A DNA stretch of 64,000 nt from NCBI RefSeq assembly GCF_057098645.1, contig NZ_CM169472.1, one strand, 5' to 3'. A program made the translations under genes and the position numbers. Below are positions 34,017-62,708 of this stretch, one piece after another (position 1 is the stretch's first letter; each line of letters starts with the position of its first letter). The notes beneath the pieces are model-generated. The model saw only the letters and a program-made list of their open reading frames with translations, had not been told where the DNA came from and searched no databases.

Positions 34017-34059
34017 CACGACACTGCTTATTGCTTTGATTTTATTCTTATCTTTCCCA

Positions 34060-42865: not shown

Positions 42866-43549
42866 TCAGTGCAGGCAGCACTTTTTAAATTTTTTACCAC
42901 TGCCACACTGACACGGGTCATTACGACCGGGCAGTTTTTCTGCCCCCTTCACGGGAACAGGCCGGGATGATGCCTCTGACATTCTCACCGACAACCAGTG
43001 CTGGTAAAGCGCCAGTGCCGCAGGCTGAATGAGAGTAATACTCTGTTCAAATTGAACAGGTGACATTTTCTCAACCACTGGGAAGTTCTTTTCAATACCA
43101 TGAAGGGCTATCGCCTCCAGCGAGGGACGTAAGGCCTCTGGCAAGGCTGACCAGTCATCCAGAGACCGGCCTTTCATATACCCGAAACACCACTCTTCGA
43201 CGATGGTATATGTCTTCCCCTTCACCTCACGTCCATTGAAAATCGGTTCAAACTGTTCAGGGGCCTCATACAGGCAGCCAGCGATATCGTTCATATGCTG
43301 AAAACACAGCCCCACAAAACGCGTCATCTCTTTTTCAGTGGTCCAGCGAGGGTGGTAATCACCTCGCCCCCAGATAGCACTGAGCCAGGTATTAGGGGAA
43401 ATCGTATTCGGGCCAGAGACAATCGCCGTCAGAAAGCCATCCAGCTCAGAGAAACAGAGCACAGAGTCATCATTGCCGTATTTCATCAACACCTCTTCCA
43501 GCCAGTCGATTTCCCGGTCAATCAGCGGCCCGCTTTTCGTCAGTTTCAT
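42866..43549 (-). CDS. YecA-like UPF0149 protein with SEC-C motif (paralogue of chromosomal yecA)
   Basis: 227-aa ORF colinear with YecA at roughly 60 percent identity by eye, ends [24 protein letters not shown] overlap with hsdS stop; stop 22 nt before next gene. Confidence 0.7.
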   Translation of the reverse strand: MKLTKSGPLIDREIDWLEEVLMKYGNDDSVLCFSELDGFLTAIVSGPNTISPNTWLSAIWGRGDYHPRWTTEKEMTRFVGLCFQHMNDIAGCLYEAPEQFEPIFNGREVKGKTYTIVEEWCFGYMKGRSLDDWSALPEALRPSLEAIALHGIEKNFPVVEKMSPVQFEQSITLIQPAALALYQHWLSVRMSEASSRPVPVKGAEKLPGRNDPCQCGSGKKFKKCCLH

Positions 43550-44188
43550 TCGGCAACCGCCTCATCGACCTTAACACGACGTTTGCCAGTCAGTAGCTGT
43601 TGCATCAGGGCTTTTTTCTCGTCTTTCAGGCAGGCGAGTTTTTTCTCCAGCGTGGAGATTTCAGCGTCGGCAGCGGAAAGGACGGCGGCGATTTTTTGTT
43701 GTTCTTTGATATCTAATGGCAACCTAAAGTCTTTCTCTTTAAGTTCTCGCATATGTCTGCTGTAACCTAAATTCGGAATATCTGTATTTGAAAGAAGATA
43801 GTATCCAAGTTTTGGTTCAAGTATTTTGCTAGTTTTTATTACTTGCGTTCCATCAGCACCGGGACAAAACACAAACTCAATCCATTTGACGCATCTTGTA
43901 TGATCGCCAAAAACAATCACAGGCACGTCCGAATAAACCTCTAAATTATTACAGTACCCAGCAATTCGACTTTGCCCTTGATCGATTATAGGGATGGAAC
44001 CTGACTGTAAATAATCGGAAGATTTGACTTGCGCCGATTTTTTATTTGCAACAATGAAAGCATTATCAAACGTTAAATATACCCACTCCCCATTAAACCT
44101 CCCCCCATTCTCATCCAGCAAGCGTTTTTGTCCGGTAAGCAATTGCTGCATCAGGGCTTTTTTCTGTTGCTGGCTGTTGGTGAGAAGC

Positions 44189-45245
44189 GGCTTTGTTGAA
44201 TAAATCAGATTTCGGGTAAGTCTCCCCCGTAGCGGGTTGTGTTTTCAGGCAATACGCACGCTTTCAGGCATACCTGCTTTCGTCATTTTGTTCAGCGCTC
44301 GTACCAGGGCCATAGCCTCCGCAACCTGACCATCGTAGTCACGCAGCGTCAGTGAACCCCCGAACAGCTGTTTTACCCGGTACATCGCCGTTTCCGCTAT
44401 CGAGCGACGGTTGTAATCTGTTGTCCATTTCCACCGCGCATTACTCCCGGTCATTCGCTGATTAGCCACTGCACGGTTACGGTCTGCATATTCACCGGGC
44501 CAGTAGCCCGCACCTTTTCGGGGAGGGATAAGCGCGCTGATTTTCTTACGCCGCAGTTCATCGTGACATAGCCGGGTATCGTAAGCGCCATCGGCGGCGG
44601 CTGACCTGATTTTCCGGTGGGTTTGCCGGATTAACCCGGGGAAGGCCTCTGAGTCCGTAACGTTGTTCAGCGACAGGTCTGCACAGATGATTTCATGTGT
44701 TTTACTGTCAACGGCGAGATGCAGCTTACGCCAGATACGGCGGCGTTCCTGGCCATGCTTTTTGACTTTCCACTCGCCTTCACCGAAGACCTTCAGCCCG
44801 GTGGAATCAATCACCAGATGTGCGATTTCACCCCGGGTGGGCGTTTTGAAACTGACATTAACCGACTTTGCCCGCCTGCTGACACAGCTGTAATCCGGGC
44901 AGCGTAGCGGAACGTTCATCAGAGAAAAAATGGAATCAATAAAGCCCTGCGCAGCGCGCAGGGTCAGCCTGAATACGCGTTTAATGACCAGCACAGTCGT
45001 GATGGCAAGGTCAGAATAGCGCTGAGGTCTGCCTCGTGAAGAAGGTGTTGCTGACTCATACCAGGCCTGAATAGCTTCATCATCCAGCCAGAAAGTTATG
45101 GAGCCACGGTTGATGAGGGCTTTATTGTAGGTGGGCCAGTTGGTGATTTTGAACTTTTGCTTTGCCACGGAACGGTCTGCGTTGTCGGGAAGATGCGTGA
45201 TCTGATCCTTCAACTCAGCAAAAGTTCGATTTATTCAACAAAGCC
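44189..45245 (-). mobile_element. IS903-like element (IS5 family), copy 1, 1057 bp
   Basis: Terminal inverted repeats GGCTTTGTTGAATAAATC; 9-bp target duplication GTGAGAAGC at 44180-44188 and 45246-45254. Confidence 0.9.
44245..45213 (-). CDS. IS903-like transposase
   Basis: 322-aa ORF; recognised by eye as IS903/IS102-type transposase. Confidence 0.85.
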   Translation of the reverse strand: MKDQITHLPDNADRSVAKQKFKITNWPTYNKALINRGSITFWLDDEAIQAWYESATPSSRGRPQRYSDLAITTVLVIKRVFRLTLRAAQGFIDSIFSLMNVPLRCPDYSCVSRRAKSVNVSFKTPTRGEIAHLVIDSTGLKVFGEGEWKVKKHGQERRRIWRKLHLAVDSKTHEIICADLSLNNVTDSEAFPGLIRQTHRKIRSAAADGAYDTRLCHDELRRKKISALIPPRKGAGYWPGEYADRNRAVANQRMTGSNARWKWTTDYNRRSIAETAMYRVKQLFGGSLTLRDYDGQVAEAMALVRALNKMTKAGMPESVRIA

Positions 45246-45815
45246 GTGAGAAGCTTTTCCGTCACCGAAATCGCCTCATCCCAGGTTGACAGAATTTTAA
45301 CGATTCTCTTTTGTTCAGACAGTGGGGGGATATTAAATGGCCACTTAAACCAACTATCTAACTTAAAAATCATTTTCTCTATGTGCACACCAATGCTAGA
45401 GTGGAAGCAGGTTTGCTGGAAATATAGAGACTCCGATAGAAATTCCATATAAGGAAGATAAAAACCGGACTTCCCTGTAAGCACACAATATTCATTCGAT
45501 ACAATTGAGCCAGAAAGTTCTTTAGGTACAAGACCGCAAGCACCGTGCACAATTTGTCGTTTTGATATGAGAAAGTCGCCTTCTTTAATATAGAATTGAC
45601 TTTTTACGGAGATATCTTTTCCTTTAAGATGCTCACGTCTTATTACGCCACCTCTGGAGCGCTTTACTGTAACTAAGTCATACTCTTGATTATCTTGTAT
45701 ATATGCCTTTCTTGCCTCTATATTTAAGCACTTTTCTAATGATAACTTTTGCCATCCTGTAGGTAGCATTCCAAGGATCGGTTTTCCAGCTTTAACGCTC
45801 ACTGGGTAAAGCGAA

Positions 45816-47339
45816 TCACGAGCCATAACCCAACTCCTTCAAATACCCTGCCATCTCAACTTCCAGCTTCGCCAGTTCCACCTTCAGTTGCTCACGCTCT
45901 GCTCGCACCGCCACCAGGTCAATCTCATCCTCTTCTTCAAAGGTATCGACATAGCGCGGAATATTGAGGTTGTAATCGTTGTCCTGAATTTCCTTCAGGC
46001 TGGCAAGATAGGCGTATTTCTCGACGTTATCGCCATCACGGTAGGTCTTGACGATTTTCTTAATGTTTTCTTCGCTAAGCTGGTTCTGGTTTTTACCTGC
46101 CTTGAATTCACGGCTGGCATCGATAAACAGCACCTTGTCATCAACTTTCTACTTTTTGAAAATCAGAATCGCAGCCGGAATCCCCGTACCGTAGAACAGT
46201 TTTTCCGGCAGACCAATTACCGCATCCAGCAAATTTTCGTCGATCAGTTTCTGGCGAATTTTACCTTCGCTGGAGCCACGGAAAAGCACACCGTGTGGCA
46301 CAACTACGCCCATACGGCCAGTTCCCGGTTTCAGGGTTTCGATCATATGCGAGATAAAAGCGTAATCTCCTTTAGTCTTCGGCGGTACACCGCGACGAAA
46401 ACGGCCAAACTTATCGTTCTCGGCCTCGTCATGGCCCCACTTATCGAGGCTGAACGGTGGGTTAGCGGTCACGATATCAAACAGCATCAGGTCGCCATTT
46501 TTATCGAGCAGCTTCGGGTTACGAATGGTATCGCCCCACTCGATTTTATGGTTGTCTTCCCCGTGCAGGAACATATTCATTTTCGCCAGCGACCACGTAG
46601 AACCGATCGCTTCCTGACCGAACAAGGCATAGTTACGACTATCATGCCCGGAGACAATTTTACGCCCACACTTCATCAATAATGAACCGGAACCACAGGC
46701 TGGATCGCAGATGGTATCACCCGGTTGCGGATCGAGCAGTTCTGCAATCAGGTCCGAAACTTCCGGCGGGGTATAGAACTCCCCGGCTTTCTGCCCACCG
46801 CTGGCGGCAAAGTTTTTGATCAGGTATTCGTAAGCATTGCCGATAACGTCCAGCGTACCGACACGACTCGGCTTCAGGTTGAGATCTTCACCGGCGAAGT
46901 CTTCCAGTAGCTGACGCAGTATGGTGTTTTTCTGTTTTTCTTCGCCAAGACGATCGGTGTTAAACGAAATATCCTGGAACACGCTTTTCCCGGCATCTTT
47001 CAGTTTGGTTCCGTTGGCTTCTTCGATTGCATGCAGAGCCTGATCGATACGCTCACCGTTACCCAGCTCATGGCGGCGTTCGTACAGCGCATAAAAGCTG
47101 GCACTTTTTGGCAGTACAAAACGCTCGTTGGCCATCATCGCTTCAATCAGTTCCGGCGCATCGCCATACTGTTCTTTGTATTCGTCATAGTGATCCTGCC
47201 AGACATCTGAAATGTACTTGAGGAACAGCATGGTAAGGATAAAGTCTTTATAGGTATCAGCACTGATGGTGCCACGGAACGTATCACACGCGGCCCACAG
47301 GGCTTTGTTGATCGTGTCCTGACTGATTTTGTCGTTCAT
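45816..47339 (-). pseudogene. hsdM: type I R-M methyltransferase HsdM with in-frame amber codon at 46149-46151
   Basis: 396-codon ORF with N6-adenine MTase motifs (DPACGSG, NPPF) stops at ...AAILIFKK TAG, then continues in frame KVDDKVLFIDAS... for 105 more codons; overlaps hsdS start. Confidence 0.8.
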
Positions 47340-47714
47340 GAATCATCCTGGTCTGAAGAAAAAGCTAGCGATGCAGGGCTTTGCATCTTAAAAATTGCGG
47401 TAAATGATACCGTAAGATGCCTCCCCTGACACGCCAATATCGCAGCATTCAGGTTTGCATCATCCCCGTAATATCGACATGAGACAGACTGACACAACCT
47501 GGCTCGTCACTCGCTAAAAACCAATTATCTTAGTAAGATAGCATCCATATTAGCCATGGTGTAAAACTGCCGTTGGGGTAATGATGATCCATATATCACC
47601 CATTCTGGTGTGTGAAGCTGACATCATCCATAATCGGCAACGTTGATGCCCTTTGATAGTAATGATGACCGTCAATGTGATTCCCCTGCTGACTGGAGGT
47701 CTCCGGATAGAATG

Positions 47715-48878
47715 AGTATTGCCAACTGCGCTATCGGCCCACTTTATGATGAGCAAATAAAAAAAACACTTATGTATGCTGACCATAAATTCAAGCGGCT
47801 AATGAATACACGAATGTCGTTACTCGAACATTTATCACCCCACTATGACTTATCTTCCATGTTCAGCTATGAGTTGGAGGGAAGAGTTTTTCGGATTAAA
47901 TTGATCAAGCCTGAGATTAAATTATCTCGCCAGCAGTTGATCTTCTCCTCACTCTTTTTAGAGCAAGATTTTCTAAAAGAATATAAAAAACACATCTCAA
48001 ATACTCTACAAAAAACAATCAAACAGTGCATTAAAAAATACAAACAAAAAATCAAAATCGAGCCTTCTATTTTAGATTACATATCAGCATCACCCCGCAA
48101 TACGTCGAGTTATGTATTACATGAGATAGTTTCTCAATGTGAACATTGCGATGAAATTCGCAATATTAAAAATGATATATTGCTTGATGAACTAACGTTG
48201 AATGGCCGGATCACTAACATTTCAAAATACATTAAAAATAGTCAAGATAAAATCGTCGAACATATAGAGTTCTGCACTCATAAACTTGTCAATATAAGTC
48301 GTAAGAATCGTCACATTTTCAACAGCACCACAATACCTGGTAGAAAACCTAACATCACTGGTGTTTTACTTTGCCTTTCGGAATTGATAAGCAACCTGCA
48401 TATTTACCCAACTGAAATTAATAATATAAGCAATGCCATAATATTAAGCATTGTATACTCTGTACTTCAACATCTTCAATCTGGAAGAGAAACAGAAAAA
48501 ACCAAAACCTCTCCAGCACTGAATTTCATCCCCACCATCATCGCACCTCATGTTTTCTACCTGGCGAAACGCGAAAAATCCTCTCAATATAAATACATTG
48601 AAAAAGAATATCTTCTCGGCCAGTTACTTATATTTTTGATGTATAAAACAGTTTACTACTCGATTCATAGCATCAGGGTAAGCCGTAAGCATTTCTATAA
48701 CGATATAAAACCAAAATTAATGACACTAAAAAAAGAAAGCTTATTAAGCACCAATTTCATGAAAAATCGAAGAGAGATTAGTGGTGAAGTCTTTGGTGAT
48801 GTTGGTAGTATTGAGGCTGATTTTCGAGAAATCAGCACATTGATTCATCGGCGAAAGGCTCTGTTTATTTCCTTTTAA
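47715..48878 (+). CDS. hypothetical protein, AT-rich, Lys/Ile/Asn-rich
   Basis: Long ORF in strongly AT-rich DNA; start chosen at MSIANCAIG; no recognisable motifs. Confidence 0.4.
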   Translation, partial: SIANCAIGPLYDEQIKKTLMYADHKFKRLMNTRMSLLEHLSPHYDLSSMFSYELEGRVFRIKLIKPEIKLSRQQLIFSSLFLEQDFLKEYKKHISNTLQKTIKQCIKKYKQKIKIEPSILDYISASPRNTSSYVLHEIVSQCEHCDEIRNIKNDILLDELTLNGRITNISKYIKNSQDKIVEHIEFCTHKLVNISRKNRHIFNSTTIPGRKPNITGVLLCLSELISNLHIYPTEINNISNAIILSIVYSVLQHLQSGRETEKTKTSPALNFIPTIIAPHVFYLAKREKSSQYKYIEKEYLLGQLLIFLMYKTVYYSIHSIRVSRKHFYNDIKPKLMTLKKESLLSTNFMKNRREISGEVFGDVGSIEADFREISTLIHRRKALFISF

Positions 48879-49279
48879 TCTTTAGAGAACACTATATCAT
48901 CGTGAAGCAGAGCTAATTTCAGCCTTGCATAGATCATTATCAATGCCATAGACAGTGTTAATCATATGACATCGTTCCGGTATTGATACTGATTATCAGG
49001 CCTTGGTTTTATGTAATTTAAACACCACCATCTCTGAAACCCCATAACGCTCACAATTTAACCATAAAAACTAACCGGTTTATACCCGCTAACAAAATCA
49101 ATAACATATTGAATTTAAATAACTATAACCATTCCAACTACAGATGACTGGCTTTTATTTATGGTATATGTCCCGGCAGAATCAAGCTTGCGCCCTCTAC
49201 CACTCACGATTTAGGATTTCCTCGCTAACACAGCATGTTTCATTATAAATCAATGTATTAATTTAAACGAGGATAAACC

Positions 49280-50126
49280 ATGTTCGAGAAAATGAAAAAC
49301 AATGTAACCCGTGTACCGGGGAATTTAACCATACTTAATCAATACCAAAAAGACATTGATCACCTGTCTAAATTATTTTCTGAACAGCTATTACTGGATC
49401 TAATGACGACTACCAACCCTAATCAAACATTGCAAATGAAACCTTCTGTAGATATTCTTCATGTACTATCTCCATCAGCATCCACTGCTAACCATATCAA
49501 TTTTTTTCAGCACGTCCCAGTGATCGAACTATGGTTAAAAAAGGAGTGCACTGCCTTTAATTCACTTGCTATTTATTTCTATGCACAGCAATCCCGTAAA
49601 AATGTCATTCCGAAAAAAAATCTGTAGACAACTGGACGTATTTATTAATACTGAACTTGCATCTGCGGTTAATGGCAATAGTAATTCTAAACCCCTTTTT
49701 CATTTTCTAAATAACTACCTTTATCATCCTAAAATGATTGCATTGATCATTTTATCTATGCTGCCTTATGAAGTCATTCGTAACGATGAATCACTGAGTG
49801 AGTTTAAAACACCATTAACCACACCCGATGAGTTTATTATCAAAGCATTTTGCGTTAAAGGTACGCAAAACACCACGGGACATAAAAAAGATATCGAACA
49901 ATTGCTTCGAAAAACATATATCTACATTGCATTACTTTTGAACCCTGAGTGGGTACCATCATCCAAGGATTTGATTTCCTTTTTATCAGGAGAGTCCACC
50001 GAGATAAGTGGTTCAATGAATTTCCAGTCAACGTCCAGTGGTCTGGGTGTTCAAACTAACAATATCACTCTTCTTAAGAATGAGGTTTACTTCGAAAAAA
50101 TAGCGAACAAGATCATGAAACTGTAG
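49280..50126 (+). pseudogene. hypothetical gene split by a frameshift in an A8 tract (49614-49621)
   Basis: ORFs 49280-49627 and 49566-50126 overlap in different frames; with A7 instead of A8 the frame reads through (...IPKKICRQLDVF...). Confidence 0.45.
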
Positions 50127-50271
50127 TTTCTTAATATAATGGCGACATGGAATTGTGTTGCCATTATATCCGAATCAGAATTTTTCACCTGATGAACTGT
50201 GAAAACTGAGACTGGCAGACAGTAATCTCGCACCGTATTTTTTCTGTGTTATTTTACAGGAGAAATACGAT

Positions 50272-51400
50272 GCCCATTCTGGATCTGCGTTTCAGCAACA
50301 AATCACTTCACCAACTTCCCCATCCCCTCACGGGCTGTCAGGAATACCGTGATATTCACTGCCAAAACCTGCGTGCTCTGGTGTATCCCAATCGGATCAC
50401 GCTGGCCTTTCGTGCCACTATAAACAATCAGCGTATATATGAACCCCTGGGTCAGTTCCCTCAGCTCTGCGTTGAGGATGCCCGTCAGCATGTGATGAAA
50501 CTGCTTGCTGATAAAAATCGTCTTGCGGTTCAGTCCCGTCGATTCACTGTGGAACAGGCCATCAATGACCTGTGGCTACCGGATTTGCAGTTGTATAAAA
50601 AGAGTCCTCAGTCAGAGTTGTCAAAACTCAACCTCTACGTTCGCCCGTTCTGGGGCAAGCGGCAACTTCGCGACATCACGGCAGGAGAACTAGAACAATA
50701 TGCTGCTGGCTTACGGGAAAAATTACGTCCGTCAACAGTAAACCGTATCCTCGCAATATTGTCCAAAATATGCTCTCTGGCAGTACGTGCTGGATGGATC
50801 ACGCATTCCCCGATGTCACATGTCCGCTATCTGAAAGAAAATAACATTCGCTATCGCACACTATCAGCGACAGAAATCCCGCGCTTTATTGACGCGGCAA
50901 CAGCGCTGCAAACACCGGCAGCTGATTCTATATTGCTTGCTCTTTATACGGGGATGCGTATTGGTGAGGTATGTACCCTGAAATGGGAGTACTGGCACCT
51001 GGATATGCATCAACTCATACTGCCTGATACAAAGTCCGGACACCCTTTCACCTGCCCACTTGCACCTCCAGCCATTGCAGTTGTCCAGTGCCAGCAGGAC
51101 CTGATGCTCAGCAAAACTTACATTTTTCCGCGACTAACCGACAATGCCCGCCCTCTGGCATATCCGCGTGCAACCTTTGCCCGTATTTGCCGGGATGCCG
51201 ACATTGATAACCTGCGGATGCATGACCTGCGCCGTACCTTTGCCACCCGGGTACTACAGGCGACCGGGGATATTGCAATCGCTTCCCATCTGCTAAATCA
51301 CCATTCACTCACGGCGACCCGTCGCTACGCTTTTCACAATGCAGCGACATCACACGCAGTGGTTTCTCAGGTCATTGAAAGTTATGACACGAAAAAATGA
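50272..51400 (+). CDS. tyrosine-type site-specific integrase
   Basis: RBS AGGAG then ATG; catalytic signature R (YTGMRIGE), HDLRRT, HH, RYAFH with Tyr. Confidence 0.75.
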
Positions 51401-51440
51401 ACCAATGATCTGTGATTCGTGAAAGCAGTTCGCAGAAAGA

Positions 51441-51608
51441 TTGAATCTTTCTGCATCCACGGTTGCGTCAGATATTTCTCGCAATCCCGGAAAACTCCCG
51501 CCCTTCATCAGAATTGGGCGGGCTATACGATTCTCTCTTGACGATATTGTTGATTGGGAAAATGCACATCGTCAAAACAAACTTAAAGGTGATATAAATG
51601 GTTACTAA
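51441..51608 (+). CDS. AlpA-like excisionase / HTH regulator (short ORF, no ATG; possibly TTG-initiated or a remnant)
   Basis: Translation LNLSASTVASDISRNPGKLPPFIRIGRAIRFSLDDIVDWENAH resembles AlpA-type HTH; frame opens right after a TGA. Confidence 0.4.
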   Translation: MNLSASTVASDISRNPGKLPPFIRIGRAIRFSLDDIVDWENAHRQNKLKGDINGY

Positions 51609-51786
51609 GAACACGGAAAATAACGCTAATAATGCACTGAACATTCTTCCCGAATCAGCAAGCACAGCTGTAGACAACGATGAAAAATATCTGTCCTTTG
51701 CATTAGTTCTCGCTATCACGATTATGGGCAACTGAACCGCCCCGGGAATCCTGGAGACTAAACTTCCTGAGAAAGAGGTAAACAGG

Positions 51787-52113
51787 ATGACTAAAAATAC
51801 TCGTTTTTCCCCTGAAGTCCGTCAACGGGCAGTCCGTATGGTTCTGGAAAGTCAGGGCGAATATGACTCACAATGGGCGACAATTTGTTCCATTGCTCCA
51901 AAGATTGGCTGTACGCCGGAGACTCTGCGTGTCTGGGTTCGCCAGCATGAGCGGGATACCGGGGGCGGTGATGGAGGGCTCACCACCGCTGAACGTCAGC
52001 GTCTGAAAGAGCTGGAGCGTGAAAATCGTGAACTGCGCCGCAGTAACGATATCCTTCGCCAGGCTTCCGCTTATTTTGCGAAGGCGGAGTTCGACCGCCT
52101 CTGGAAAAAATGA
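51787..52113 (+). CDS. IS629 OrfA (transposase N-terminal HTH part)
   Basis: 108-aa [22 protein letters not shown]... Confidence 0.85.
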
Positions 52114-53000
52114 TGCCACTGCTGGATAAGCTGCGTGAGCAGTACGGGGTCGGACCGCTATGCAGCGAACTGCATATTGCCCCGTCAACGTATTACCACT
52201 GTCAGCAACAGCGACATCATCCGGATAAACGCAGTGCCCGTGCGCAGCGCGATGACTGGCTGAAGAAAGAGATACAGCGCGTATACGATGAAAATCACAA
52301 GGTATACGGTGTGCGTAAAGTCTGGCGTCAGTTGTTACGGGAAGGTATCAGAGTGGCCAGATGCACTGTGGCACGTCTCATGGCGGTTATGGGACTTGCC
52401 GGTGTTCTCCGGGGTAAAAAGGTCCGTACGACCATCAGCCGGAAAGCCGTTGCCGCAGGCGACCGCGTAAACCGTCAGTTCGTGGCAGAACGACCTGACC
52501 AGCTGTGGGTGGCTGATTTTACTTACGTCAGCACATGGCAGGGCTTCGTCTATGTGGCGTTCATCATTGATGTGTTTGCCGGATACATTGTGGGGTGGCG
52601 GGTCTCATCGTCCATGGAGACGACATTCGTGCTGGATGCACTGGAGCAGGCGTTATGGGCCCGTCGACCGTCCGGCACGGTCCATCACAGTGATAAAGGT
52701 TCTCAGTATGTATCGCTGGCCTACACACAGCGGCTTAAGGAAGCCGGATTACTGGCATCAACAGGAAGTACAGGCGACTCGTATGACAACGCGATGGCGG
52801 AGAGCATCAATGGTCTTTACAAAGCGGAGGTAATACACCGTAAGAGCTGGAAAAACCGTGCAGAAGTGGAACTGGCCACACTCACGTGGGTGGACTGGTA
52901 TAACAATCGACGATTGCTGGAAAGGCTGGGCCATACTCCTCCGGCAGAAGCAGAAAAAGCTTATTATGCTTCCATCGGAAACGATGATCTGGCAGCCTGA
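52110..53000 (+). CDS. IS629 OrfB (transposase catalytic part, DDE)
   Basis: 296-aa ORF overlapping orfA. Confidence 0.85.
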
Positions 53001-53662
53001 GTTCACAGATAAAACACTCTCCAGGAAACCCGGGGCGGTTCAAACTTAGTAAAGCTCATCGGCACAGATGGCTTCATACTTTATACCTACACCCTGCAGG
53101 ACACGGCTACTGCTCGTGCTGTTTTTAATGAATTAGCCAGGCGTCTCAAAAATTTCAATCGTCAGGAGGAGGTCTACACCACCGATTCCCTCACCTTTCG
53201 AATGAAATACATTTACGGTGTTACCCTGTTCGAACATGATAGTAAATCTATCCTTAACCTTTTTGATAAGAAGGGTTATCCAGTATTGAGTGAATCAGGA
53301 GAACCCGGTTCTCTTGATGATATGTATCTTGACATTCAAGCCCGATTACATGGCGGCTACGCCTCAAAAAAGTTTCTTCATTTACATGAACATTGTCTGT
53401 TATCTGCACACGTTACCCCGTCTGTGGAAAAGACGCAACGTGGTATCCTGATTAAAGCAGGCAGGAAACTCGTTTCCTTTATCTATGCAGATAATGAATC
53501 TCGCAAAAATGATATTTTCAAAGCTGTAGTAGACGTCATTAAATCCTGATTCATTATGCCGGGTGCGTATTCCGCTCTATTCGATCACGGATTGGCATCG
53601 AAGTCCGATCAGCGATTCGCATCCATTCGATCAACCGGGAACTTAACTTTTTCTACCGCTTT

Positions 53663-54421
53663 TTAACGCGTTTTTTCGCTGCTTTCCACTACCGGGGGAT
53701 TTTTCCTCAGTGACTCTCCCTGAAGGACCACTCGGTGTGAGTTATGTACCAGTCTGTCCAGGATGGCATCTGCTGTTGTTGGGTTCTCCATCAGACCATG
53801 CCATTTATCTACCGGGAACTGGCTTACCACTATCGTGCTGCTTTGTCCGTAACGATCCTCTATGAGCTCCAGAAGGTCATTACACTGGGCGTTACTTAAC
53901 TGTTCCAGCCCCAGATCGTCCAGGATTAGAACCTGTATTTTTTGCAACTGTTTCAGATATTTCAGCCAGCTGCCATCAACACGTCCCTGAGCCAGTTGTT
54001 CCAGTAATCGCCCGGTTCTACAGTACCGGACGCTGTGTTTCTGTCGACATGCCTGTTCGCCCAGCGCATTGGCTATCCAGCTCTTGCCACATCCTGTCGG
54101 ACCGGTTATCAGCAGGTTTTTCCTGTGGGTTATGTAGTGGCCGTTCAGCAGTTCTCTCATCTGTTCAGCCCGCAGACCTCTTGAGGCCGGATAGCGCAGC
54201 CCTTCCGGTGTTGCCTGGTATTTCAGGCCGGCATTTTTTCTCAACCGTGCCACACGGCTGTTTTCCCTGCTCAGAAGCTCGTCATCAACCAGCAGCGTCA
54301 GCCTTTCCTCGAACGACAGTTCGTCGTAGGTCTGAGGCGTTTCCCGCTGCCGTATCAGGCTCCCGGCCATCGCCGGGAGTTTCAGTTGGGTCAGTTTGTT
54401 TAACAGGTTATCACTCATACT
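53663..54421 (-). CDS. istB: IS21-family IstB ATP-binding helper protein
   Basis: Start at MSDNLLNKL; Walker A GPTGCGKS. Confidence 0.75.
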   Translation of the reverse strand, partial: SMSDNLLNKLTQLKLPAMAGSLIRQRETPQTYDELSFEERLTLLVDDELLSRENSRVARLRKNAGLKYQATPEGLRYPASRGLRAEQMRELLNGHYITHRKNLLITGPTGCGKSWIANALGEQACRQKHSVRYCRTGRLLEQLAQGRVDGSWLKYLKQLQKIQVLILDDLGLEQLSNAQCNDLLELIEDRYGQSSTIVVSQFPVDKWHGLMENPTTADAILDRLVHNSHRVVLQGESLRKNPPVVESSEKTR

Positions 54422-54434
54422 GTTGTTCCTTCTG

Positions 54435-55970
54435 TCAGTGGTAGTAGCCCGGACCACGCAGGTTTTCATGCTCTGAAGCATATGCCGGATGTTGTTCGCC
54501 CTGGCGGGATAATGGAAGCTCCAGGTTCTCCCGATGGTGACGCAGCAGATTGTCGATAAAGCGTCTGTCAGGGGCGTTATAGTGCAGGGCAACGTAACAG
54601 GCCTTTTCCAGCCGTTCCGGGCCGTATTTTTTCTGAAGTGCCAGCAGCCCCAGAACTGCACGATAAGCCAGTTCCGGATGGGGTTTTGCCTTCAGCATGG
54701 ATTCAACCACCCGGCCTGTGGACGGGCCCGTACGTTTTCCCTGCTCGATCAGGCGTTCCGGTGTCCATGTCCCGTGCTGCCGGTGGCGCTCTGGCATGTG
54801 AAGCGGATTGGTTGTGTGTTTATATTCATGTGTGCTGCGCGGATGTTGCGCCACACACTGCCCCTTGTGCCAGAGCTGTACCACCGACTGCCCCGCCTTC
54901 AGTGACAGACGCTGACCGACCAGTTCGTGTGGAACGGAGTACCAGTGACGGGCATATTCAACGTGGTAGTCAGGGCCAACCTTCACAGCTTTGTATTCCG
55001 TGTATTCATAAGGTGCCAGAGGCAGCGGAGAGAGTGCTGGCGCATCCAGTATGCGGAAGCGTTCTGCACGGGTTTGATTGCCGTACCCCTTCATTGGCCG
55101 GTTATTCATGTCTGTCAGTAACTCCCTAAGGCGCGCATTCAGCGCCCTGAGCGTGTGGAAGGTTTCATTACGGATGCGGGCAAGAAGCCATCGTTCAACG
55201 ATGAGGACGCCGTTTTCTGCTTTTGGTTTATCTTTAGGTTTGCGTGGTCGGGCCGGGATGATAACCGTGCCATAGTGCTCAGCCAGTGCCTGATAACTGT
55301 CGTTGATGACAGGCTCATATCGATCGGCCTTTTTCACTGCGCTTCTGAGGTTATCGGGGATGAGCAGCTTCGGTACGCCGCCCAGGAAGGTCAGGCAACG
55401 GCTGTGGGCATTTAACCATGACATCATGTCCTGACCTTCGCACGCTTCAACGTAGGTATAGTTGGACGCCCCCATTACGGCCACGAAGATTGCCACGCGG
55501 CGTATCTCACCGGTGTCCGGATTAATAACAGGAACCGTAGGACCACAGAAGTCGATAAAAAGCTTTTCGCCGGCACGATGCTCCTGGCGCATGGAGAGAC
55601 GTCGCGTTTTTTTCCACTCCCGGTAGCAACGGCAGAAGTGCGAGTATCCCATCGCTTTGTTACCCGCCTGTGCCTTGTATTCCATCCACAACAGTTGCCG
55701 CGTCACACCTGGTTTTCTCATTTCCGTATCGAAGTACAACATGTCAGGCATTACAAGCTCTGATGCAAAGGTGTCTTTGGGCGGAAAAATGAGTTTCTCC
55801 AGCGTGTCATGGGATATATCAGCAGGTAATGGCCATGACAGAGAAGAGGCTTTGAAGCGGGCAAGAACCTCAAAAACGGTTGAGGCGCTGATGTGTAACG
55901 TCAGTCCGATACAACGGTTAGTCAGCTTCTTGTCGAACTTGAGCTGAAGGATCTTAAAACAGGTTTCCAT
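54435..55970 (-). CDS. istA: IS21-family transposase IstA
   Basis: Start chosen at METCFKIL; DDE integrase-type fold; precedes istB. Confidence 0.7.
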   Translation of the reverse strand: METCFKILQLKFDKKLTNRCIGLTLHISASTVFEVLARFKASSLSWPLPADISHDTLEKLIFPPKDTFASELVMPDMLYFDTEMRKPGVTRQLLWMEYKAQAGNKAMGYSHFCRCYREWKKTRRLSMRQEHRAGEKLFIDFCGPTVPVINPDTGEIRRVAIFVAVMGASNYTYVEACEGQDMMSWLNAHSRCLTFLGGVPKLLIPDNLRSAVKKADRYEPVINDSYQALAEHYGTVIIPARPRKPKDKPKAENGVLIVERWLLARIRNETFHTLRALNARLRELLTDMNNRPMKGYGNQTRAERFRILDAPALSPLPLAPYEYTEYKAVKVGPDYHVEYARHWYSVPHELVGQRLSLKAGQSVVQLWHKGQCVAQHPRSTHEYKHTTNPLHMPERHRQHGTWTPERLIEQGKRTGPSTGRVVESMLKAKPHPELAYRAVLGLLALQKKYGPERLEKACYVALHYNAPDRRFIDNLLRHHRENLELPLSRQGEQHPAYASEHENLRGPGYYH

Positions 55971-56594
55971 AGTGCTCCTGGATTTTCTCTTTCTGGACAT
56001 TGACGTCTCCACTGGTTTAAACACGGCAATGGAGACTGTGGTGAAAAGAGTTAATTCCCGGAGTGACTGGCAGGATGCCAATCAATGATCGGAAGCATGC
56101 CAAATCGTGATCGATTGTGATGCCAAACTGTGATCGGAGATGGATGCCAAATCATGATCGATTCGAATGCCAAACTGCGATCGATTCAGATGCCATTTTG
56201 CAGCCGGGGGGGACGAACTCCCGGCATTTTTTCGGAGTTAACTATGAGCAATAATTTGCAGGACATCCTCGCTGCCGCATCGGGGTATCAGTCCGTGACT
56301 TCAGAGCCAGCGCTCAATCTTAAAAGACCTAAAACGCTTGATGATTATCCTGTGATACCACCTGCATCAAAAAAAGTATCTGTTATTTCAAGTGACCTGA
56401 CACTCCATATCGGTTTTGATACCGAATATGTTTTCAATCCTGAAACACAACAGAATGATATTCTGTCATATCAGAGTTATGTTGTCTTACCCGATAATAC
56501 AGGTATATCGAACATTATCTATCCACCTGACTCACAGAAAAAATCCCGGCTGTCTTTTAAGAACTTTCTCTGTCAAACGATTATGGATTTGCCC

Positions 56595-57500
56595 CTATAT
56601 TTCCAGACATCTGTTATCACTTAACCCATTACAAGCCCGCTGCCGCAGATATTCCCGTGGCGAGCGATAACCCAGCGCACTATGCGGATGCCATTCGTTA
56701 TAATGCTCGAACGCCTCTGCAAGGTTCTTTGCTGCCGTTAACCCGTCTGGTTTGGGCATGATACTGATGTAGTCACGCTTTATCGTTTTCACGAAGCTCT
56801 CTGCTATTCCGTTACTCTCCGGACTCCGCACCGCCGTGTTCTTCGGTTCAAGTCCCAACATCCGGGCGAACTGGCGTGTTTCATTAGCCCGGTAGCATGA
56901 ACCATTATCCGTCAGCCACTCCACTGGAGACGACGGAAGATCGTTGCCGAAGCGGCGTTCCACCGCTCCCAGCATGACGTCCTGTACTGTTTCACTGTTG
57001 AAGCCGCCGGTAGTCACCGCCCAGTGCAGTGCCTCACGATCACAGCAGTCCAGCGCGAACGTGACACGCAGTCTCTCTCCGTTATCACAGCAGAACTCGA
57101 ACCCGTCAGAGCACCATCGCTGATTGCTTTCTTTCACGGCCACTCTGCCTGTATGTGCCCGTTTCGATGGCGGTACAGCAGGTTTTCGCTCAAGCAACAG
57201 CGCATTCTGGCGCATGATCCGGTAAACACGTTTGGCATTGATCGCAGGCATACCATCAAGTTCTGCCTGTCTGCGAAGCAGCGCCCATACCCGACGATAA
57301 CCATACGTGGGCAGCTCTCCGATAACATGGTGTATACGGAGAAGCACATCCGTATCATCAGTGTGACGACTGCGGCGGCCATCCATCCAGTCATCGGTTC
57401 GTCTGAGAATGACGTGCAACTGCGCACGCGACACCCGGAGACAACGGCTGACTAAGCTTACTCCCCATCCCCGGGCAATAAGGGCGCGTGCGCTATCCAC
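56595..57500 (-). CDS. insD: IS2 transposase InsD
   Basis: 301-aa ORF. Confidence 0.85.
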
Positions 57501-57823
57501 TTTTTTGCCCGTCCATATTCAACGGCTTCTTTGAGGAGTTCATTTTCCATCGTTTTCTTGCCGAGCAGGCGCTGGAGTTCTTTAATCTGCTTCATGGCGG
57601 CAGCAAGTTCAGAGGCAGGAACAACCTGTTCTCCGGCGGCCACAGCAGTAAGACTTCCTTCCTGGTATTGCTTACGCCAGAGAAATAACTGGCTGGCTGC
57701 TACACCATGTTGCCGGGCAACGAGGGAGACCGTCATCCCCGGTTCAAAGCTCTGCTGAACAATTGCGATCTTTTCCTGTGTGGTACGCCGTCTGCGTTTC
57801 TCCGGCCCTAAGACATCAATCAT
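57458..57823 (-). CDS. insC: IS2 InsC
   Basis: Start at [13 protein letters not shown], 121 aa. Confidence 0.85.
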
Positions 57824-59974
57824 CTGTTCTCCAATGACTAGTCTAAAAACTAGTATTAAGACTATCACTTATTTAAGTGATACTGGTTGTCTGGAGATTC
57901 AGGGGGCCAGTCTAGATTACACCGCTTCTTGAAACGGGTGTGATTACAAAATGGCCCGGTATTATTAATATATATGCGCATTTCATTCGTGCGGATATCA
58001 CCTCCTTTGCCAATTTCTGGTCAGACTACAAAATTCTTCTGAAAGGAATACGCGGTACTGTCAGCAGCTTCAAAAATCGTTACGGTATCGATTTTGATGA
58101 ACAGCAGGAACGTCGCGTAAAGACTGAACAGATAATGTTTGACAAACGAACTTCCCCTCCGCGTTGCAGTAACGTAGCTTTCATCGATACACTGCTTATC
58201 ACTCCCGGGGGTATGGGTCTGGCTGAATGTGGTGAATTACTGGGTCTTCCCAAACTGACCATTCCTGCACCTTATTCCATAACCAATATGCGTGAATATC
58301 TTCTGGGCGACAGAGCAGGGTTTGAAGCCTATGCTCTGCGGGATGCCGAGATTGCGGTTCGTTATGCTTTACAGGTTCGCAATTTTTGCGCCCGGGAGCT
58401 GATGATTGATCGTGTCCCCGCCACCATCGGGGCGATGGCAGTTTCACGGTTCACCAAAACACTTAAAGAAAACAATATGTCTCCTGAAGTCTGCCTTGGG
58501 ACACACATTAAAACCCGTGAACTCTGGCTCACGGAGAAACAGGCATTCCGGACGATTAAAAACCCCGCCAGTGTTCCTTCAAGAGAGCTGTTTGAAACGT
58601 TCCCGATCAACTGTTACCACGGCGGACGCAATGAGTGTTTTATGATGGGGGTTACACCGTCTGATCACTGGTATGACTACGATCTGGCTGGAGCGTATAC
58701 CACCGGGCTATTAGATATCCTCATACCCGATTACGGAAACATCCGCCTCAGTAAAAATCCGGACGATTACTGTGGGCATGTAATGGGATTTGCGTTTGTC
58801 ACATTTCAGTTCCCGGAATCAGTTCCCTATCCCAGCCTGCCGGTTCGGACCGATCAATATGGGTTATTCTTTCCATTAAGTGGCGAATCATGGGCAACGG
58901 CACCTGAAATCGAACTTGCTCTGTCGCTCGGGGCAGAGATGACGATCCATAATGGGATCATCGTCCCCTGGATCTGTGACACCTCCCCACATAACAGCGA
59001 ATCAACATCGGTGTTTCTTCCCTTTGTTCAACAGGTCCGTGAGAACCGTAATCGCCATATTAAAGGTTCTCTGGAGGAGAAATTCTGGAAAGAAATTGGC
59101 AACTCGCTTTATGGCAAACTTGCTCAGGGCCTTCGCGCCAAAACCGCCTTTGATACTGCCCGTGGATTAAACAGATCCCTCCCACCATCATCGGTTACTC
59201 AGCCATTCTTTGCTGCGCATGTGACGGGATTTATCCGCGCCGTTGTCGGGGAACTCATGAATGCTTTGCCTTCTGATTCATCGGTTGTCAGCGTCACAAC
59301 CGATGGCTTTTTGACAAATTGCCCACTTAACAAGATAAACATGAGCGGTCCACTGTCTTCCCGCTTCCAGTCGCTGTGCGATATTGTTGATCCGGGTTCA
59401 TCAATGTTGACATGTAAGCATGAGGTCAGCCAGCTTATCGCCATGAAAACCCGGGGGCAGTTAACCTATAGAGCTATTCAGGGAAAACCTGTTGTTCATG
59501 CCAGGGCTGGCGTCAAACCTCCTGCCGATATTCCACGCAGTGACTATAACGACTATATGGTAGATCTTTACCTTAATCGTTTACCCGGTCAGACGTTATC
59601 CCGAAGTACGTTGATATCAACGCGTGAGATGTGGCTGTCGGAAAGCGATCTGGTATCCCGGGAACAGGATATCCGTCTTAATCTGGAATTCGATTTCAAA
59701 CGCCAGCCCGTACAGCCCGCCATGAATGAAGGGCATTTACTGATGTCTTCCCGCCCATGGGATAATATGGAAGAGGCTCTGCAGCAACGCTCTCTTTTCG
59801 ACGACTGGCGGCAAACGCATACACTGAAGACCCTGGCTGACTGGGATGACTGGTGTGATTTTCTCTATTGCCGGACGGTGTTTTCTGATATGAAACTAAA
59901 AGTCGGAAGCAAACGTAGTGATGATATTTTAGTCAGACTATTTCTCCGGGCGCTGACTCAGTGCCAATGGGGGC

Positions 59975-60523
59975 TTATGCTGAAAGATAAAAAAAGTTAT
60001 TCCTGTAAAGAGGTTGCTGAATGGCTGACGTCAGAAGGCTATTCAGTAACATGTCAAAAAGCACCTGCTGGATCTCCCGGGCCCGAAGGTCGCAGTAACG
60101 TATCTTCCCCAGACGAGGTTCAATGTATTGCGTGAAACGCTGAACATCCTTATCCCAGGACTTTTTATGGCGTTTGATGAACGGAACATAGGTCTGGTGA
60201 AAAAACTCACTAAGTGTTGGCATCGCACGATAATTATCGCGTTCTGCTTTAGGGTCATTTCCCAGTGCAATCGCCTCCTTGTGACGACGAGCTATCTGAC
60301 GGGCTGTCCCCACATCGATTTCAGGGAATCTGCCAATACTGATACTTTTTTTGGTACCGTGGAATGTGTAGCGCAGGAGGAAACGTTTGTTACCCGTTCG
60401 ACCTGAGAGACATTTGAGGCCTATGACCTCGGTATCTGATACCTCAAGCTCTGTAGATCGGGTATCTGTGTTTGCCGGAAGGGCTTTGATGGATGAATTG
60501 GTGAATCGGAAGGATTTTTGCAT
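59975..60523 (-). pseudogene. N-terminal fragment of a P4-type tyrosine integrase (arm-binding domain), truncated
   Basis: MQKSFRFTNSSIKALP ... GRFPEIDVGTARQIARRHKEAIALGNDP resembles integrase N-terminal domain; no catalytic domain follows; overlaps piPolB 3-prime end on the opposite strand. Confidence 0.5.
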
Positions 60524-60709
60524 ATTTATCCTCATGTATCTGATTGATATCATGAAAATAATATATATCTGAAGGTGTTTTTATTACGGGGCAGGATTGA
60601 AGAATGGAAAAGCTATTAGACGCGTACAAACGGATATTGCAGGAAGTTAACGCCCAGTCATTTAACCTGAATGAGGATAAATACTCAGGCGTCTTTTTAC
60701 CCGTGCCGT

Positions 60710-61766
60710 GGCTTTGTTGAATAAATCGAACTTTTGCTGAGTTGAAGGATCAGATCACGCATCTTCCCGACAACGCAGACCGTTCCGTGGCAAAGCAAAA
60801 GTTCAAAATCACCAACTGGCCCACCTACAATAAAGCCCTCATCAACCGTGGCTCCATAACTTTCTGGCTGGATGATGAAGCTATTCAGGCCTGGTATGAG
60901 TCAGCAACACCTTCTTCACGAGGCAGACCTCAGCGCTATTCTGACCTTGCCATCACGACTGTGCTGGTCATTAAACGCGTATTCAGGCTGACCCTGCGCG
61001 CTGCGCAGGGCTTTATTGATTCCATTTTTTCTCTGATGAACGTTCCGCTACGCTGCCCGGATTACAGCTGTGTCAGCAGGCGGGCAAAGTCGGTTAATGT
61101 CAGTTTCAAAACGCCCACCCGGGGTGAAATCGCACATCTGGTGATTGATTCCACCGGGCTGAAGGTCTTCGGTGAAGGCGAGTGGAAAGTCAAAAAGCAT
61201 GGCCAGGAACGCCGCCGTATCTGGCGTAAGCTGCATCTCGCCGTTGACAGTAAAACACATGAAATCATCTGTGCAGACCTGTCGCTGAACAACGTTACGG
61301 ACTCAGAGGCCTTCCCCGGGTTAATCCGGCAAACCCACCGGAAAATCAGGTCAGCCGCCGCCGATGGCGCTTACGATACCCGGCTATGTCACGATGAACT
61401 GCGGCGTAAGAAAATCAGCGCGCTTATCCCTCCCCGAAAAGGTGCGGGCTACTGGCCCGGTGAATATGCAGACCGTAACCGTGCAGTGGCTAATCAGCGA
61501 ATGACCGGGAGTAATGCGCGGTGGAAATGGACAACAGATTACAACCGTCGCTCGATAGCGGAAACGGCGATGTACCGGGTAAAACAGCTGTTCGGGGGTT
61601 CACTGACGCTGCGTGACTACGATGGTCAGGTTGCGGAGGCTATGGCCCTGGTACGAGCGCTGAACAAAATGACGAAAGCAGGTATGCCTGAAAGCGTGCG
61701 TATTGCCTGAAAACACAACCCGCTACGGGGGAGACTTACCCGAAATCTGATTTATTCAACAAAGCC
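60710..61766 (+). mobile_element. IS903-like element, copy 2, 1057 bp, inverted relative to copy 1
   Basis: Same inverted repeats; 9-bp target duplication CCGTGCCGT at 60701-60709 and 61767-61775. Confidence 0.9.
60742..61710 (+). CDS. IS903-like transposase
   Basis: 322-aa ORF identical in translation to the copy at 44245-45213. Confidence 0.85.
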   Translation: MKDQITHLPDNADRSVAKQKFKITNWPTYNKALINRGSITFWLDDEAIQAWYESATPSSRGRPQRYSDLAITTVLVIKRVFRLTLRAAQGFIDSIFSLMNVPLRCPDYSCVSRRAKSVNVSFKTPTRGEIAHLVIDSTGLKVFGEGEWKVKKHGQERRRIWRKLHLAVDSKTHEIICADLSLNNVTDSEAFPGLIRQTHRKIRSAAADGAYDTRLCHDELRRKKISALIPPRKGAGYWPGEYADRNRAVANQRMTGSNARWKWTTDYNRRSIAETAMYRVKQLFGGSLTLRDYDGQVAEAMALVRALNKMTKAGMPESVRIA

Positions 61767-62578
61767 CCGTGCCGTTTGAAGAATACTGGCATTCACCGAT
61801 AAAAATCATGCTGGTTGGACGTGAAACCGCAGGCTGGAATACGCTGAATGGTAAGAATACGATATCACGGGTGTTGGGACTTATACCTGACGTCACCATC
61901 GGGCAAGTGGTTGAAGAAGCTGTAGATCGTTACAGGAAACATCTTCCGGTACAAAATTATGGCACCGCCAACCTCAAATCACGTAGCCGCTTCACGCAAT
62001 ATCATTTCAGGCTGGCCCGGGAGCTTAATATTCTTCCCCAGGCAATCGTGTATGCCAATCTACTGGCGTGGGATTACGACGGACTGACCCCTCTCAATCG
62101 CCCTCAAAATGAAGTGCAGGAAGTCATATTAGCCTCGCTGAAGCTACTGGCGGTACAAATTAAACACCTTGAGCCTGATTTCATCATCTTTGCATCTGGA
62201 GCCCGGAGAACAGACTACATCATAAAACAGGTGCTTACTGAGCTAGGCGGCTATGAGACTTCTTCAGTCATTCCGGGGAAGCTGTGGGAGTTCAAAACAG
62301 GTAATACAATCTGTTTCAGAATTGCCCATCCAAGGGCTATGCGCGGACACCAGAAGTACAGAGATGAGGTGATTGCACGAATTAAGCAACTTTGTACTCA
62401 GGGTGGCTAGAGCATTACAGCTTGCTCAGCAGGGCCCCTTCCCGGAAGAGTACCGGAAAACAGGCAAAGCAACCTGGTTCTCTATGCTGGAGGCGACACG
62501 TTCGATTCGGCATTGCCAGGCTGGAGATTGCAGCTCATTGCACCCCGTGAGCACAGGATATGCACAGGACATGAATTT

Positions 62579-62708
62579 CAGGCACAAAAAAACCACCCGG
62601 AGGTGGTTTCACGACACTGCTTATTGCTTTGATTTTATTCTTATCTTTCCCATGGTACCCGGAGCGGGACTTGAACCCGCACAGCGCGAACGCCGAGGGA
62701 TTTTAAAT
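62579..62708. repeat. attR: 130-bp direct repeat (leuZ 3-prime part plus downstream flank)
   Basis: Matches 33986-34115 with 1 mismatch. Confidence 0.9.
62584..62609 (-). terminator. rho-independent terminator downstream of leuZ (copy within attR)
   Basis: aaaaaaaccaccc gga ggtggttt. Confidence 0.6.

Follow-up and report, generated by a model that had tools for sequence, protein, structure and literature searches.

Two inverted IS903B copies within an Escherichia coli pipolin, very probably acquired by independent insertion

The window analysed here, a 64,000-nucleotide stretch of contig NZ_CM169472.1 (assembly GCF_057098645.1), carries two copies of an IS903-type element that face each other across about 15.5 kb of DNA, raising the question of whether the pair constitutes a composite transposon or two separate insertions. 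Tn903 consists of inverted IS903 copies flanking aphA1, with an interior of approximately 1 kb. We consider it very probable that the two IS903B copies entered an E. coli pipolin in separate transposition events, each of which generated its own 9-bp duplication. The coordinates of the features are given in Table 1.

Table 1. Features of the pipolin and of the two IS903B insertion sites (positions in the window)
Feature	Position	Strand	Details
Pipolin attL direct repeat	33983..34115		133 nt, 131/133 identical to attR
hsdS 3' fragment, type I R-M specificity subunit	43546..44188	-	
Copy 1 TSD, left	44180..44188		9 bp, GTGAGAAGC, read directly
IS903B copy 1	44189..45245	-	1057 bp, in hsdS; transposase on minus strand
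Copy 1 transposase gene	44245..45168	-	307 aa from GTG; open frame to 45213, 322 aa from TTG (PGAP choice)
Copy 1 TSD, right	45246..45254		9 bp, GTGAGAAGC, read directly
hsdS 5' fragment	45246..45826	-	Insertion follows coding nt 572
hsdM with premature amber Q397*	45816..47339	-	TAG at 46149-46151
Pipolin tyrosine recombinase, intact	50246..51400	+	384 aa; Phage_integrase and Phage_int_M; between the IS903B copies
IS629-like element, IS3 family	51733..53042	+	1310 bp, TSD AAC; interrupts 212-aa hypothetical gene
IS21-family element (PGAP: ISSso4 family)	53564..56202	-	2639 bp; istA and istB
piPolB gene, split by IS2	56244..60135	+	
IS2 in piPolB	56584..57914	-	1331 bp, 5-bp TSD GATTA
Partial integrase	59975-60553		Arm-DNA-bind_3 domain
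UDG-superfamily gene 5' fragment	60604..60709	+	246-aa gene, pipolin right end
Copy 2 TSD, left	60701..60709		9 bp, CCGTGCCGT, read directly
IS903B copy 2	60710..61766	+	1057 bp, in UDG-like gene; transposase on plus strand
Copy 2 transposase gene	60787..61710	+	307 aa from GTG; open frame starts 60742
UDG-superfamily gene 3' fragment	61767..62410	+	
Copy 2 TSD, right	61767..61775		9 bp, CCGTGCCGT, read directly
Pipolin attR direct repeat	62576..62708		Overlaps 3' part of tRNA-Leu(taa)
tRNA-Leu(taa)	62653-62739	-	

The original prediction described identical transposases in two oppositely oriented copies some 15.5 kb apart, and each of these points was borne out. A repeat search returned the two elements as the sole inverted pair (1057 nt, 100% complementary, with 15,464 nt between them), and in a scripted comparison the sequence of copy 1 was the exact reverse complement of that of copy 2, leaving no divergence in their pairwise alignment. 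Identity of the transposase ORFs follows directly from that of the DNA. The terminal inverted repeats read GGCTTTGTTGAATAAATC, with 18 of 18 positions identical at both ends and divergence beginning at position 19; 18-bp perfect terminal inverted repeats are characteristic of IS903. The copy 1 transposase matched the NCBIfam model NF033579 for IS5 family transposases (E 6e-107; 357 bits against a cutoff of 140 bits), and the Pfam domains PF13737 and PF01609 (DDE_Tnp_1_5 and DDE_Tnp_1) both scored above their gathering thresholds. Furthermore, the element matched at 100% over 1057 bp copies on E. coli plasmids and chromosomes annotated as 'IS5-like element IS903B family transposase', and the IS903B entry lists a 1057-bp member of the IS5 family (PMC5001619, Table 2). 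With its length, perfect 18-bp terminal repeats, single DDE transposase of 307 aa and 9-bp TSD, the element does not differ structurally from IS903 or IS903B, and its novelty is confined to the two insertion sites. Judged by sequence, it is best called an IS903B-type element of the IS903 group, IS5 family, the isoform name being the PGAP family label. The predicted ORF and the ends are intact in both copies, which amounts to the prerequisites for transposition only.

Both copies lie in a pipolin that extends from 33983 to 62708 at a tRNA-Leu gene. Att-like terminal direct repeats, one of them overlapping a tRNA gene (tRNA-Leu in E. coli), serve as a criterion for pipolins (PMC7385651), and the att repeats of this island have that arrangement. 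After removal of IS2 and one of its TSD copies, piPolB encodes 851 aa, in which the KH-X8-KTRG motif at 613-626 reads KHEVSQLIAMKTRG and TTDG occurs at 573. The reported hallmarks of piPolB are KH-X8-KTRG replacing KxY and a PolC motif without the first Asp, with K613, H614, K623 and R625 (PMC5695915); a PDB sequence search with piPolB returned no match. The island thus resembles other E. coli pipolins in its att repeats, tRNA-Leu site, piPolB and tyrosine recombinase (PMC5695915; PMC7385651; PMC11551731), as well as in its right-end UDG-like gene and distal type I R-M defence cargo. In contrast to those pipolins, this copy is heavily IS-laden. It has taken five insertions, and the genes broken by them are hsdS, a core hypothetical gene, piPolB and the UDG-like gene; hsdM, in addition, contains an amber codon. 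Besides the IS903B copies and IS2, the insertions comprise an IS629-like element, which carries an ALIL frameshift pseudoknot at 52068-52184, and an IS21-family element, which is flanked by the 6-bp TSD GCCGGG and lies just upstream of piPolB. Codon 397 of hsdM is CAG in both reference strains and TAG here. The sequence suggests that this pipolin is probably replication- and restriction-defective. Five IS elements plus a nonsense mutation were counted in the pipolin versus no IS element in 35 kb of adjacent core chromosome.

Copy 1 splits the predicted hsdS gene of the type I restriction-modification cargo. In silico removal of this copy together with one TSD restored an intact 404-aa hsdS frame, identical to that of strain PapRG-06-5 at 402 of 405 positions. 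Copy 2 splits a divergent UDG-fold (DNA-glycosylase-like) gene adjoining attR, and the corresponding removal yielded a 246-aa frame 100% identical to that of strain G1/2. The 246-aa protein had no match in Pfam, NCBIfam or PDB sequence searches, and its assignment comes from fold-level and motif-level tests.

Separate 9-bp duplications had been proposed for the two copies, in line with the 9-bp direct repeat published for IS903 and IS903B, and the flanks agree: GTGAGAAGC borders copy 1 and CCGTGCCGT borders copy 2. The probability of a chance 9/9 flank match is 4^-9 (~4e-6) per element. Empty sites were supplied by two IS903-free relatives, strains G1/2 and PapRG-06-5 (loci L001 and L002), from whose loci both copies are missing in the alignment. 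The empty site of copy 1 corresponds to 6181-6189 of L002, where the alignments of the left and right flanks overlap by exactly 9 bp. The empty site of copy 2 corresponds to 16770-16778 of L001 and L002, the overlap of the flanks again being the 9-bp duplication; the aligned segments overlap over 16769-16778 because the last IS base matches by chance. The interior (45246-60709) is colinear with the corresponding part of the island in strains lacking IS903, at 97-100% identity, which indicates that the IS903B copies are independent simple insertions. The published preferred target of IS903 is WTTYA-N9-TRAAW, and the flanks match it poorly, with 3/5 plus 1/5 at site 1 and 3/5 plus 3/5 at site 2, which fits the loose specificity of IS903 and lends no positive support.

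Across 5,426 complete E. coli genomes, a search with both full insertion junctions recovered neither. Considering the identity of the copies, the otherwise intact state of the interrupted genes and the uniqueness of the junctions among complete E. coli genomes, both insertions are, as far as sequence comparison indicates, recent and strain-specific. A homologous R-M module with 95-97% identity occurs on Klebsiella IncF plasmids. Three candidates for another occurrence of the copy 1 insertion were set aside. In strain 613 (H51), the apparent IS in hsdS is an IS903-like element with 88% identity that lies elsewhere, next to an hsdS that is intact. The other two are Klebsiella plasmids with an IS5 family transposase annotated near the homologous R-M module. 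In pKp3b, the IS lies outside hsdS, and the insertion in pYZ-58-173k is an independent one, with 95% identity, the TSD CCGTTAATG and another position and orientation.

Inverted IS903 copies around cargo are the architecture of Tn903, and IS903B composites are known to transpose (PMC9769513), so that the pair might have arrived as a pre-formed Tn903-like composite transposon already carrying the 15.5-kb interior. However, the outer left flank (GTGAGAAGC) differs from the outer right flank (CCGTGCCGT), so that the pair has no common duplication, and the two flanks of each individual IS do match as a TSD. Furthermore, in the IS-free relatives the DNA runs without a break from one exterior through the interior to the other, with order and orientation unchanged, and each of the two split genes, hsdS and the UDG-like gene, has its parts to either side of an IS and can be rejoined into an intact ORF. 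IS903 is not known to excise precisely at appreciable frequency. The probability of a composite arrival is therefore close to nil, and the original reading of the pair as independent insertions rather than a composite transposon holds, given the differing TSDs and the colinearity of the interior with IS903-free strains.

IS903 forms cointegrates as well as simple insertions, as older literature describes, and copy 2 could on these grounds be a product of intramolecular, cointegrate-type replicative transposition of copy 1, inverting the intervening DNA. For IS26, inversions by intramolecular replicative transposition are documented (PMC5001619, discussion; PMC4471558). In one step, this route would leave the interior inverted and the duplications split, so that one half of the old target and one half of the new, in reverse complement, flank each IS, and it is contradicted by the colinearity of the interior with the references and the matched direct TSD at each copy. 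A two-step form, in which replicative transposition is followed by exact homologous re-inversion, would bring back the colinearity and reunite each 9-bp pair around a single IS; it gives the same final sequence but invokes two events where one suffices; we regard the replicative route as highly improbable. An assembly artefact, in which a repeat consensus filled two gaps and so produced either one of the copies or their perfect identity, is given an equally low probability. The 100.0% identity over 1057 bp would be expected of such an artefact, IS copies are a classic repeat-resolution problem, and IS-caused gaps are known in pipolin reconstructions. An artefact would not, however, create 9-bp duplications at precise junctions where the sequence of relatives runs uninterrupted, and it is common for a genome to contain identical IS903B copies, in up to 40 or more places and also across several replicons. 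If the source is a short-read or hybrid assembly, assembly or polishing could have contributed in part to the 100% identity, since repeat copies are often homogenised.

We thus favour two separate transpositions of IS903B and propose the following scenario. Copy 1 very probably entered hsdS of the type I R-M cargo by simple insertion, its 9-bp duplication arising from a staggered cut, and copy 2 very probably entered the UDG-like gene next to attR by a separate simple insertion with its own 9-bp duplication. A further copy of IS903B would have served as donor, whether this was a member of the pair itself or lay beyond the window on a plasmid or the chromosome. The outcome is a 17,578-bp unit in which 1057-bp perfect inverted repeats surround 15,464 bp of pipolin DNA. 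The interior contains the 5' fragment of hsdS, the amber-bearing hsdM, two hypothetical genes, the integrase, an HTH gene, the IS629-like element, the IS21-family element, piPolB interrupted by IS2, and the partial integrase.

The matched TSDs and the colinearity mean that the assembled state is un-inverted, and the 15.5-kb segment is currently in that orientation. RecA-dependent recombination between the IS903B copies would flip the interior, and homologous inversion is plausible as a reasonable extension of established recombination biology; the diagnostic junction of a flipped interior would be GTGAGAAGC-IS-ACGGCACGG. In the E. coli long-term evolution experiment, approximately 70% of large rearrangements, inversions included, arose through recombination between IS copies (PMC4173774). 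The inversions mediated there by IS150 and IS1 likewise used about 1 kb of homology from inverted identical IS copies, whereas the segment considered here, at 15.5 kb, is small, is wholly contained in a non-essential island and does not cross the replication axis.

By analogy with Tn903, it is plausible that IS903 transposase could act on the outermost ends of the pair and move all 17.6 kb as one unit. A 6.6-kb IS903B composite transposon was observed to move from plasmid to chromosome (PMC9769513). As in Tn903, two inverted IS903-type copies with all four ends intact bracket passenger DNA. Unlike Tn903, the pair very probably came together at its present site through two separate insertions, and it lacks a common outer TSD; its interior, 15.5 kb of pipolin DNA, includes three further IS elements and has no selectable marker. 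Among the defining features of a composite transposon, intact outer ends around passenger DNA are thus present and a single common target duplication is absent. That the pair already constitutes a functional Tn903-like composite transposon of 17.6 kb, formed in situ and carrying the pipolin core (integrase and piPolB region) with part of the type I R-M system, is improbable. If it were true, transposition of the unit to a conjugative plasmid would provide a concrete route for pipolin-to-plasmid gene exchange. Exchange between pipolins and plasmids has been inferred by comparative genomics, with defence genes 'usually found near transposases' (PMC11551731).

IS903B is a known element with known behaviour, and the pair has little import beyond annotation and would not surprise a specialist. 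The gain for annotation is that two IS903B insertions are labelled and the genes they destroyed, hsdS and a UDG-fold gene, are identified. The 15.5-kb segment may appear in either orientation to assemblers and in comparative analyses. This IS-hit pipolin illustrates the decay of defence islands and how IS elements could bracket modules for exchange.

A repeat search of the entire window returned one inverted pair only, comprising copy 1 and copy 2 of an IS903B element, each of 1057 nt, 100% complementary and 15,464 nt apart, and a scripted comparison showed that the reverse complement of copy 2 is exactly copy 1. The original prediction of two identical, inverted copies was thus correct to the base, with zero divergence between them. 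Both elements share an 18-bp terminal inverted repeat, GGCTTTGTTGAATAAATC (18/18 identical), and each is co-oriented with the gene that it disrupts. The 9-bp target-site duplications (TSDs) predicted for each copy were read at the junctions as GTGAGAAGC and CCGTGCCGT, respectively, and were confirmed by the empty sites of relatives; the probability of a 9/9 flank match by chance is approximately 4e-6 per element.

The same Escherichia coli chromosomal island occurs without IS903 in strains G1/2 and PapRG-06-5, and the window aligned colinearly with both IS903-free islands (L001/L002). The flanks of copy 1 meet at 6181-6189 of L002, and those of copy 2 at 16770-16778 of L001/L002, so that the flank overlap is exactly the 9 duplicated bases; the HSPs around copy 2 overlap by one base more (16769-16778) because the final IS base matches by accident. 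In silico removal of copy 1, inserted after nt 572 of hsdS, together with one duplication restored a 404-aa HsdS, with 402 of 405 aligned positions identical to that of PapRG-06-5, and removal of copy 2 restored a 246-aa ORF 100% identical to that of G1/2. These results show that each copy arose by a simple insertion that duplicated 9 bp of its target.

The outer flanks of the two copies differ and the interior is native to the island in IS903-free relatives, ruling out import as a composite transposon and bearing out the claim that the insertions were independent. One-step intramolecular replicative transposition predicts an inverted interior and split duplications; the interior is colinear and the duplications are matched, indicating that the assembled state is un-inverted, and this route is also ruled out. 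Replicative inversion followed by exact homologous re-inversion would lead to the same final sequence and stays a formal possibility, at the cost of a second event where a single one is enough.

Coordinates of features in the window
Feature	Coordinates	Remarks
Copy 1	44189-45245 (-)	IS903B
Copy 1 duplication	44180-44188 + 45246-45254	GTGAGAAGC; junction reading
Copy 2	60710-61766 (+)	IS903B
Copy 2 duplication	60701-60709 + 61767-61775	CCGTGCCGT; junction reading
246-aa gene	60604-60709 + 61767-62410	split by copy 2
Pipolin	33983-62708	att repeats, tRNA-Leu(taa), piPolB with KH-X8-KTRG, tyrosine recombinase, UDG-like gene right
Direct repeats	33983-34115 + 62576-62708	island ends
tRNA-Leu(taa)	62653-62739	overlapped by right repeat
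hsdR	37705-40989	intact
hsdM Q397*	46149-46151 (-)	TAG
Tyrosine recombinase	50246-51400	pipolin feature
IS629-like, IS3 family	51733-53042	1310 bp; TSD AAC; ALIL frameshift pseudoknot; splits 212-aa hypothetical gene
IS21-family (PGAP 'ISSso4 family')	53564-56202	2639 bp; TSD GCCGGG
IS2	56584-57914	TSD GATTA; splits piPolB
tap/tar	12532-14879	ordinary core-genome feature
MicL	1459-1766	ordinary core-genome feature
C0465	15758-15835	ordinary core-genome feature

The 1057-bp sequence was matched in at least 5,000 enterobacterial plasmids; among the matches listed, those on four E. coli plasmids show 100% identity and each bears the label 'IS5-like element IS903B family transposase', and a chromosomal copy in strain 2017.17.03CC is also 100% identical. 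The sole long ORF scored 357 bits (cutoff, 140) with NCBIfam NF033579, the model for IS5 family transposases, and also matched the Pfam domains DDE_Tnp_1_5 and DDE_Tnp_1; the transposase is 307 aa from the GTG at codon 16, PGAP annotating the 322-aa frame. IS903B belongs to the IS5 family, is 1057 bp long (PMC5001619), and generates 9-bp direct repeats (PMC9769513; PMC2577343 Table 1). All defining features tested were found in the element, for which 'IS903-group, IS903B-type' appears the safe name, the isoform label being PGAP's. The donor of both insertions would be another IS903B copy. As some strains harbour IS903B at as many as 40 or more genomic places and identical copies are on plasmids, the donor may have been a plasmid copy, or one copy of the pair may have given rise to the other. 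Both target sites show only a weak resemblance to the published preferred site, WTTYA-N9-TRAAW (PMC2577343).

The island that carries both copies is a pipolin of E. coli, riddled with ISs. The repeat at its ends is 133 nt long (131/133 identical), tRNA-Leu(taa) is followed by tRNA-Cys, tRNA-Gly, and pgsA-uvrC, and yecA, tyrP, and the flagellar-chemotaxis region lie to the left. In silico removal of IS2 and one 5-bp duplication from the interrupted family-B polymerase gene gave 851 aa, 848 identical to G1/2, with KHEVSQLIAMKTRG at residues 613-626 and TTDG replacing the DTDS core of the PolC motif (YxDTDS). Both features, together with the residue numbering (K613, H614, K623, and R625), agree with the hallmarks of the primer-independent PolB of E. 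coli pipolins, an enzyme characterised biochemically (PMC5695915). Published pipolins likewise integrate at tRNA-Leu and exhibit att repeats, distal defence cargo, a tyrosine recombinase, and a 'UDG at the right end' (PMC7385651, PMC11551731). The left cargo comprises type I restriction–modification (R-M), DUF262, and M48 peptidase genes. In strain G1/2 (L004 7264-19304), yecA and the pipolin are separated by a further module of 12 kb, which carries an MZA system against phages, a partial integrase, and IS421. This module is absent from the window (compared at ~34030), showing tandem, modular occupancy of the tRNA-Leu site.

The 246-aa protein disrupted by copy 2 had no sequence matches in Pfam, NCBIfam, or PDB, and its homologues are called UDG-like by some sources. 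A structure search with its AlphaFold (AF2) model (37 homologues; pLDDT 90, pTM 0.89) returned the UDG superfamily only, with family-4 UDG 4zby at the top (E 1e-5), followed by UdgX, SMUG1, and TDG (TM-scores 0.4-0.6). The product is thus predicted to be a divergent protein of the uracil-DNA-glycosylase fold. Invariant residues include GRET.GWN and AHPR motifs, and the gene is kept in pipolin-like contexts in Enterobacterales, Pseudoalteromonas, Marinobacter, and others.

Between the copies lie, in order, the hsdS 5' half, hsdM, two hypothetical genes, an integrase, an HTH gene, the 212-aa gene with the IS629-like element, the IS21-family element, piPolB with IS2, and a partial integrase. The amber codon in hsdM, where both references read CAG, may be genuine or may stem from a sequencing error. 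Breakage of hsdS as well as hsdM leaves the type I R-M system doubly inactivated, and its phenotype should be r- m-. The type I R subunit is inactive without the M2S core, so this state would be harmless. The hsdR/cold-shock-domain/YecA-like/hsdS/hsdM module (37002-47628) is also on the Klebsiella IncFIB/IncFII plasmids pKp3b and pYZ-58-173k, where it adjoins the tra region and is 96-97.5% identical outside the variable parts of hsdS, which fits the exchange of defence cargo between pipolins and plasmids described in the literature. Five clean IS insertions of four families occupy approximately 18 kb of the pipolin, and comparison with G1/2 revealed none in the window's 35 kb of flanking core chromosome; under uniform insertion along the window, the probability that all five fall in the 28.7-kb island is approximately 0.02. 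This clustering fits the usual insertion tolerance of dispensable horizontally acquired DNA. Elsewhere in the window, the direct repeats of families D1 and D2 (73-74% identity, 1701-nt spacing) correspond to the paralogous chemoreceptor genes tap and tar, and Rfam placed the MicL sRNA inside cutC and the C0465 sRNA adjoining tar.

A search of 5,426 complete E. coli genomes found neither IS903B junction, so both insertions are private to the source strain; this finding, the identity of the copies, and the fact that the target genes are otherwise intact suggest recent insertion. Two look-alikes proved to be different events. In E. coli strain 613 (L003, NZ_CP183123.1), an 88%-identical IS903-like element lies directly past an intact hsdS, and in pYZ-58-173k a 95%-identical element lies in a homologous hsdS at a different position and orientation (TSD CCGTTAATG). 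The strain 613 island is without its left part (hsdR, cold-shock-domain gene, YecA-like gene) up to chromosomal yecA, which looks like an IS-adjacent deletion.

The original prediction was right in both observation and interpretation (identical, inverted, independent). Neither the element nor its behaviour nor the type of island is new; the present analysis adds proof from empty sites, names the genes that are disrupted, and recognises the host island as an IS-riddled pipolin. The copies had also been proposed as substrates for homologous inversion, and 1057 bp of perfect inverted homology would be an adequate RecA substrate. In evolving E. coli, IS–IS recombination caused ~70% of large rearrangements, inversions included (PMC4173774). 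Inversion would exchange the inner duplications, giving GTGAGAAGC-IS-ACGGCACGG, and would spare attL and attR while affecting only already broken genes, and should thus be near-neutral. The 17.6-kb unit has the inverted IS903 architecture of Tn903, and IS903B composite transposons do move (PMC9769513); movement of the unit is possible.
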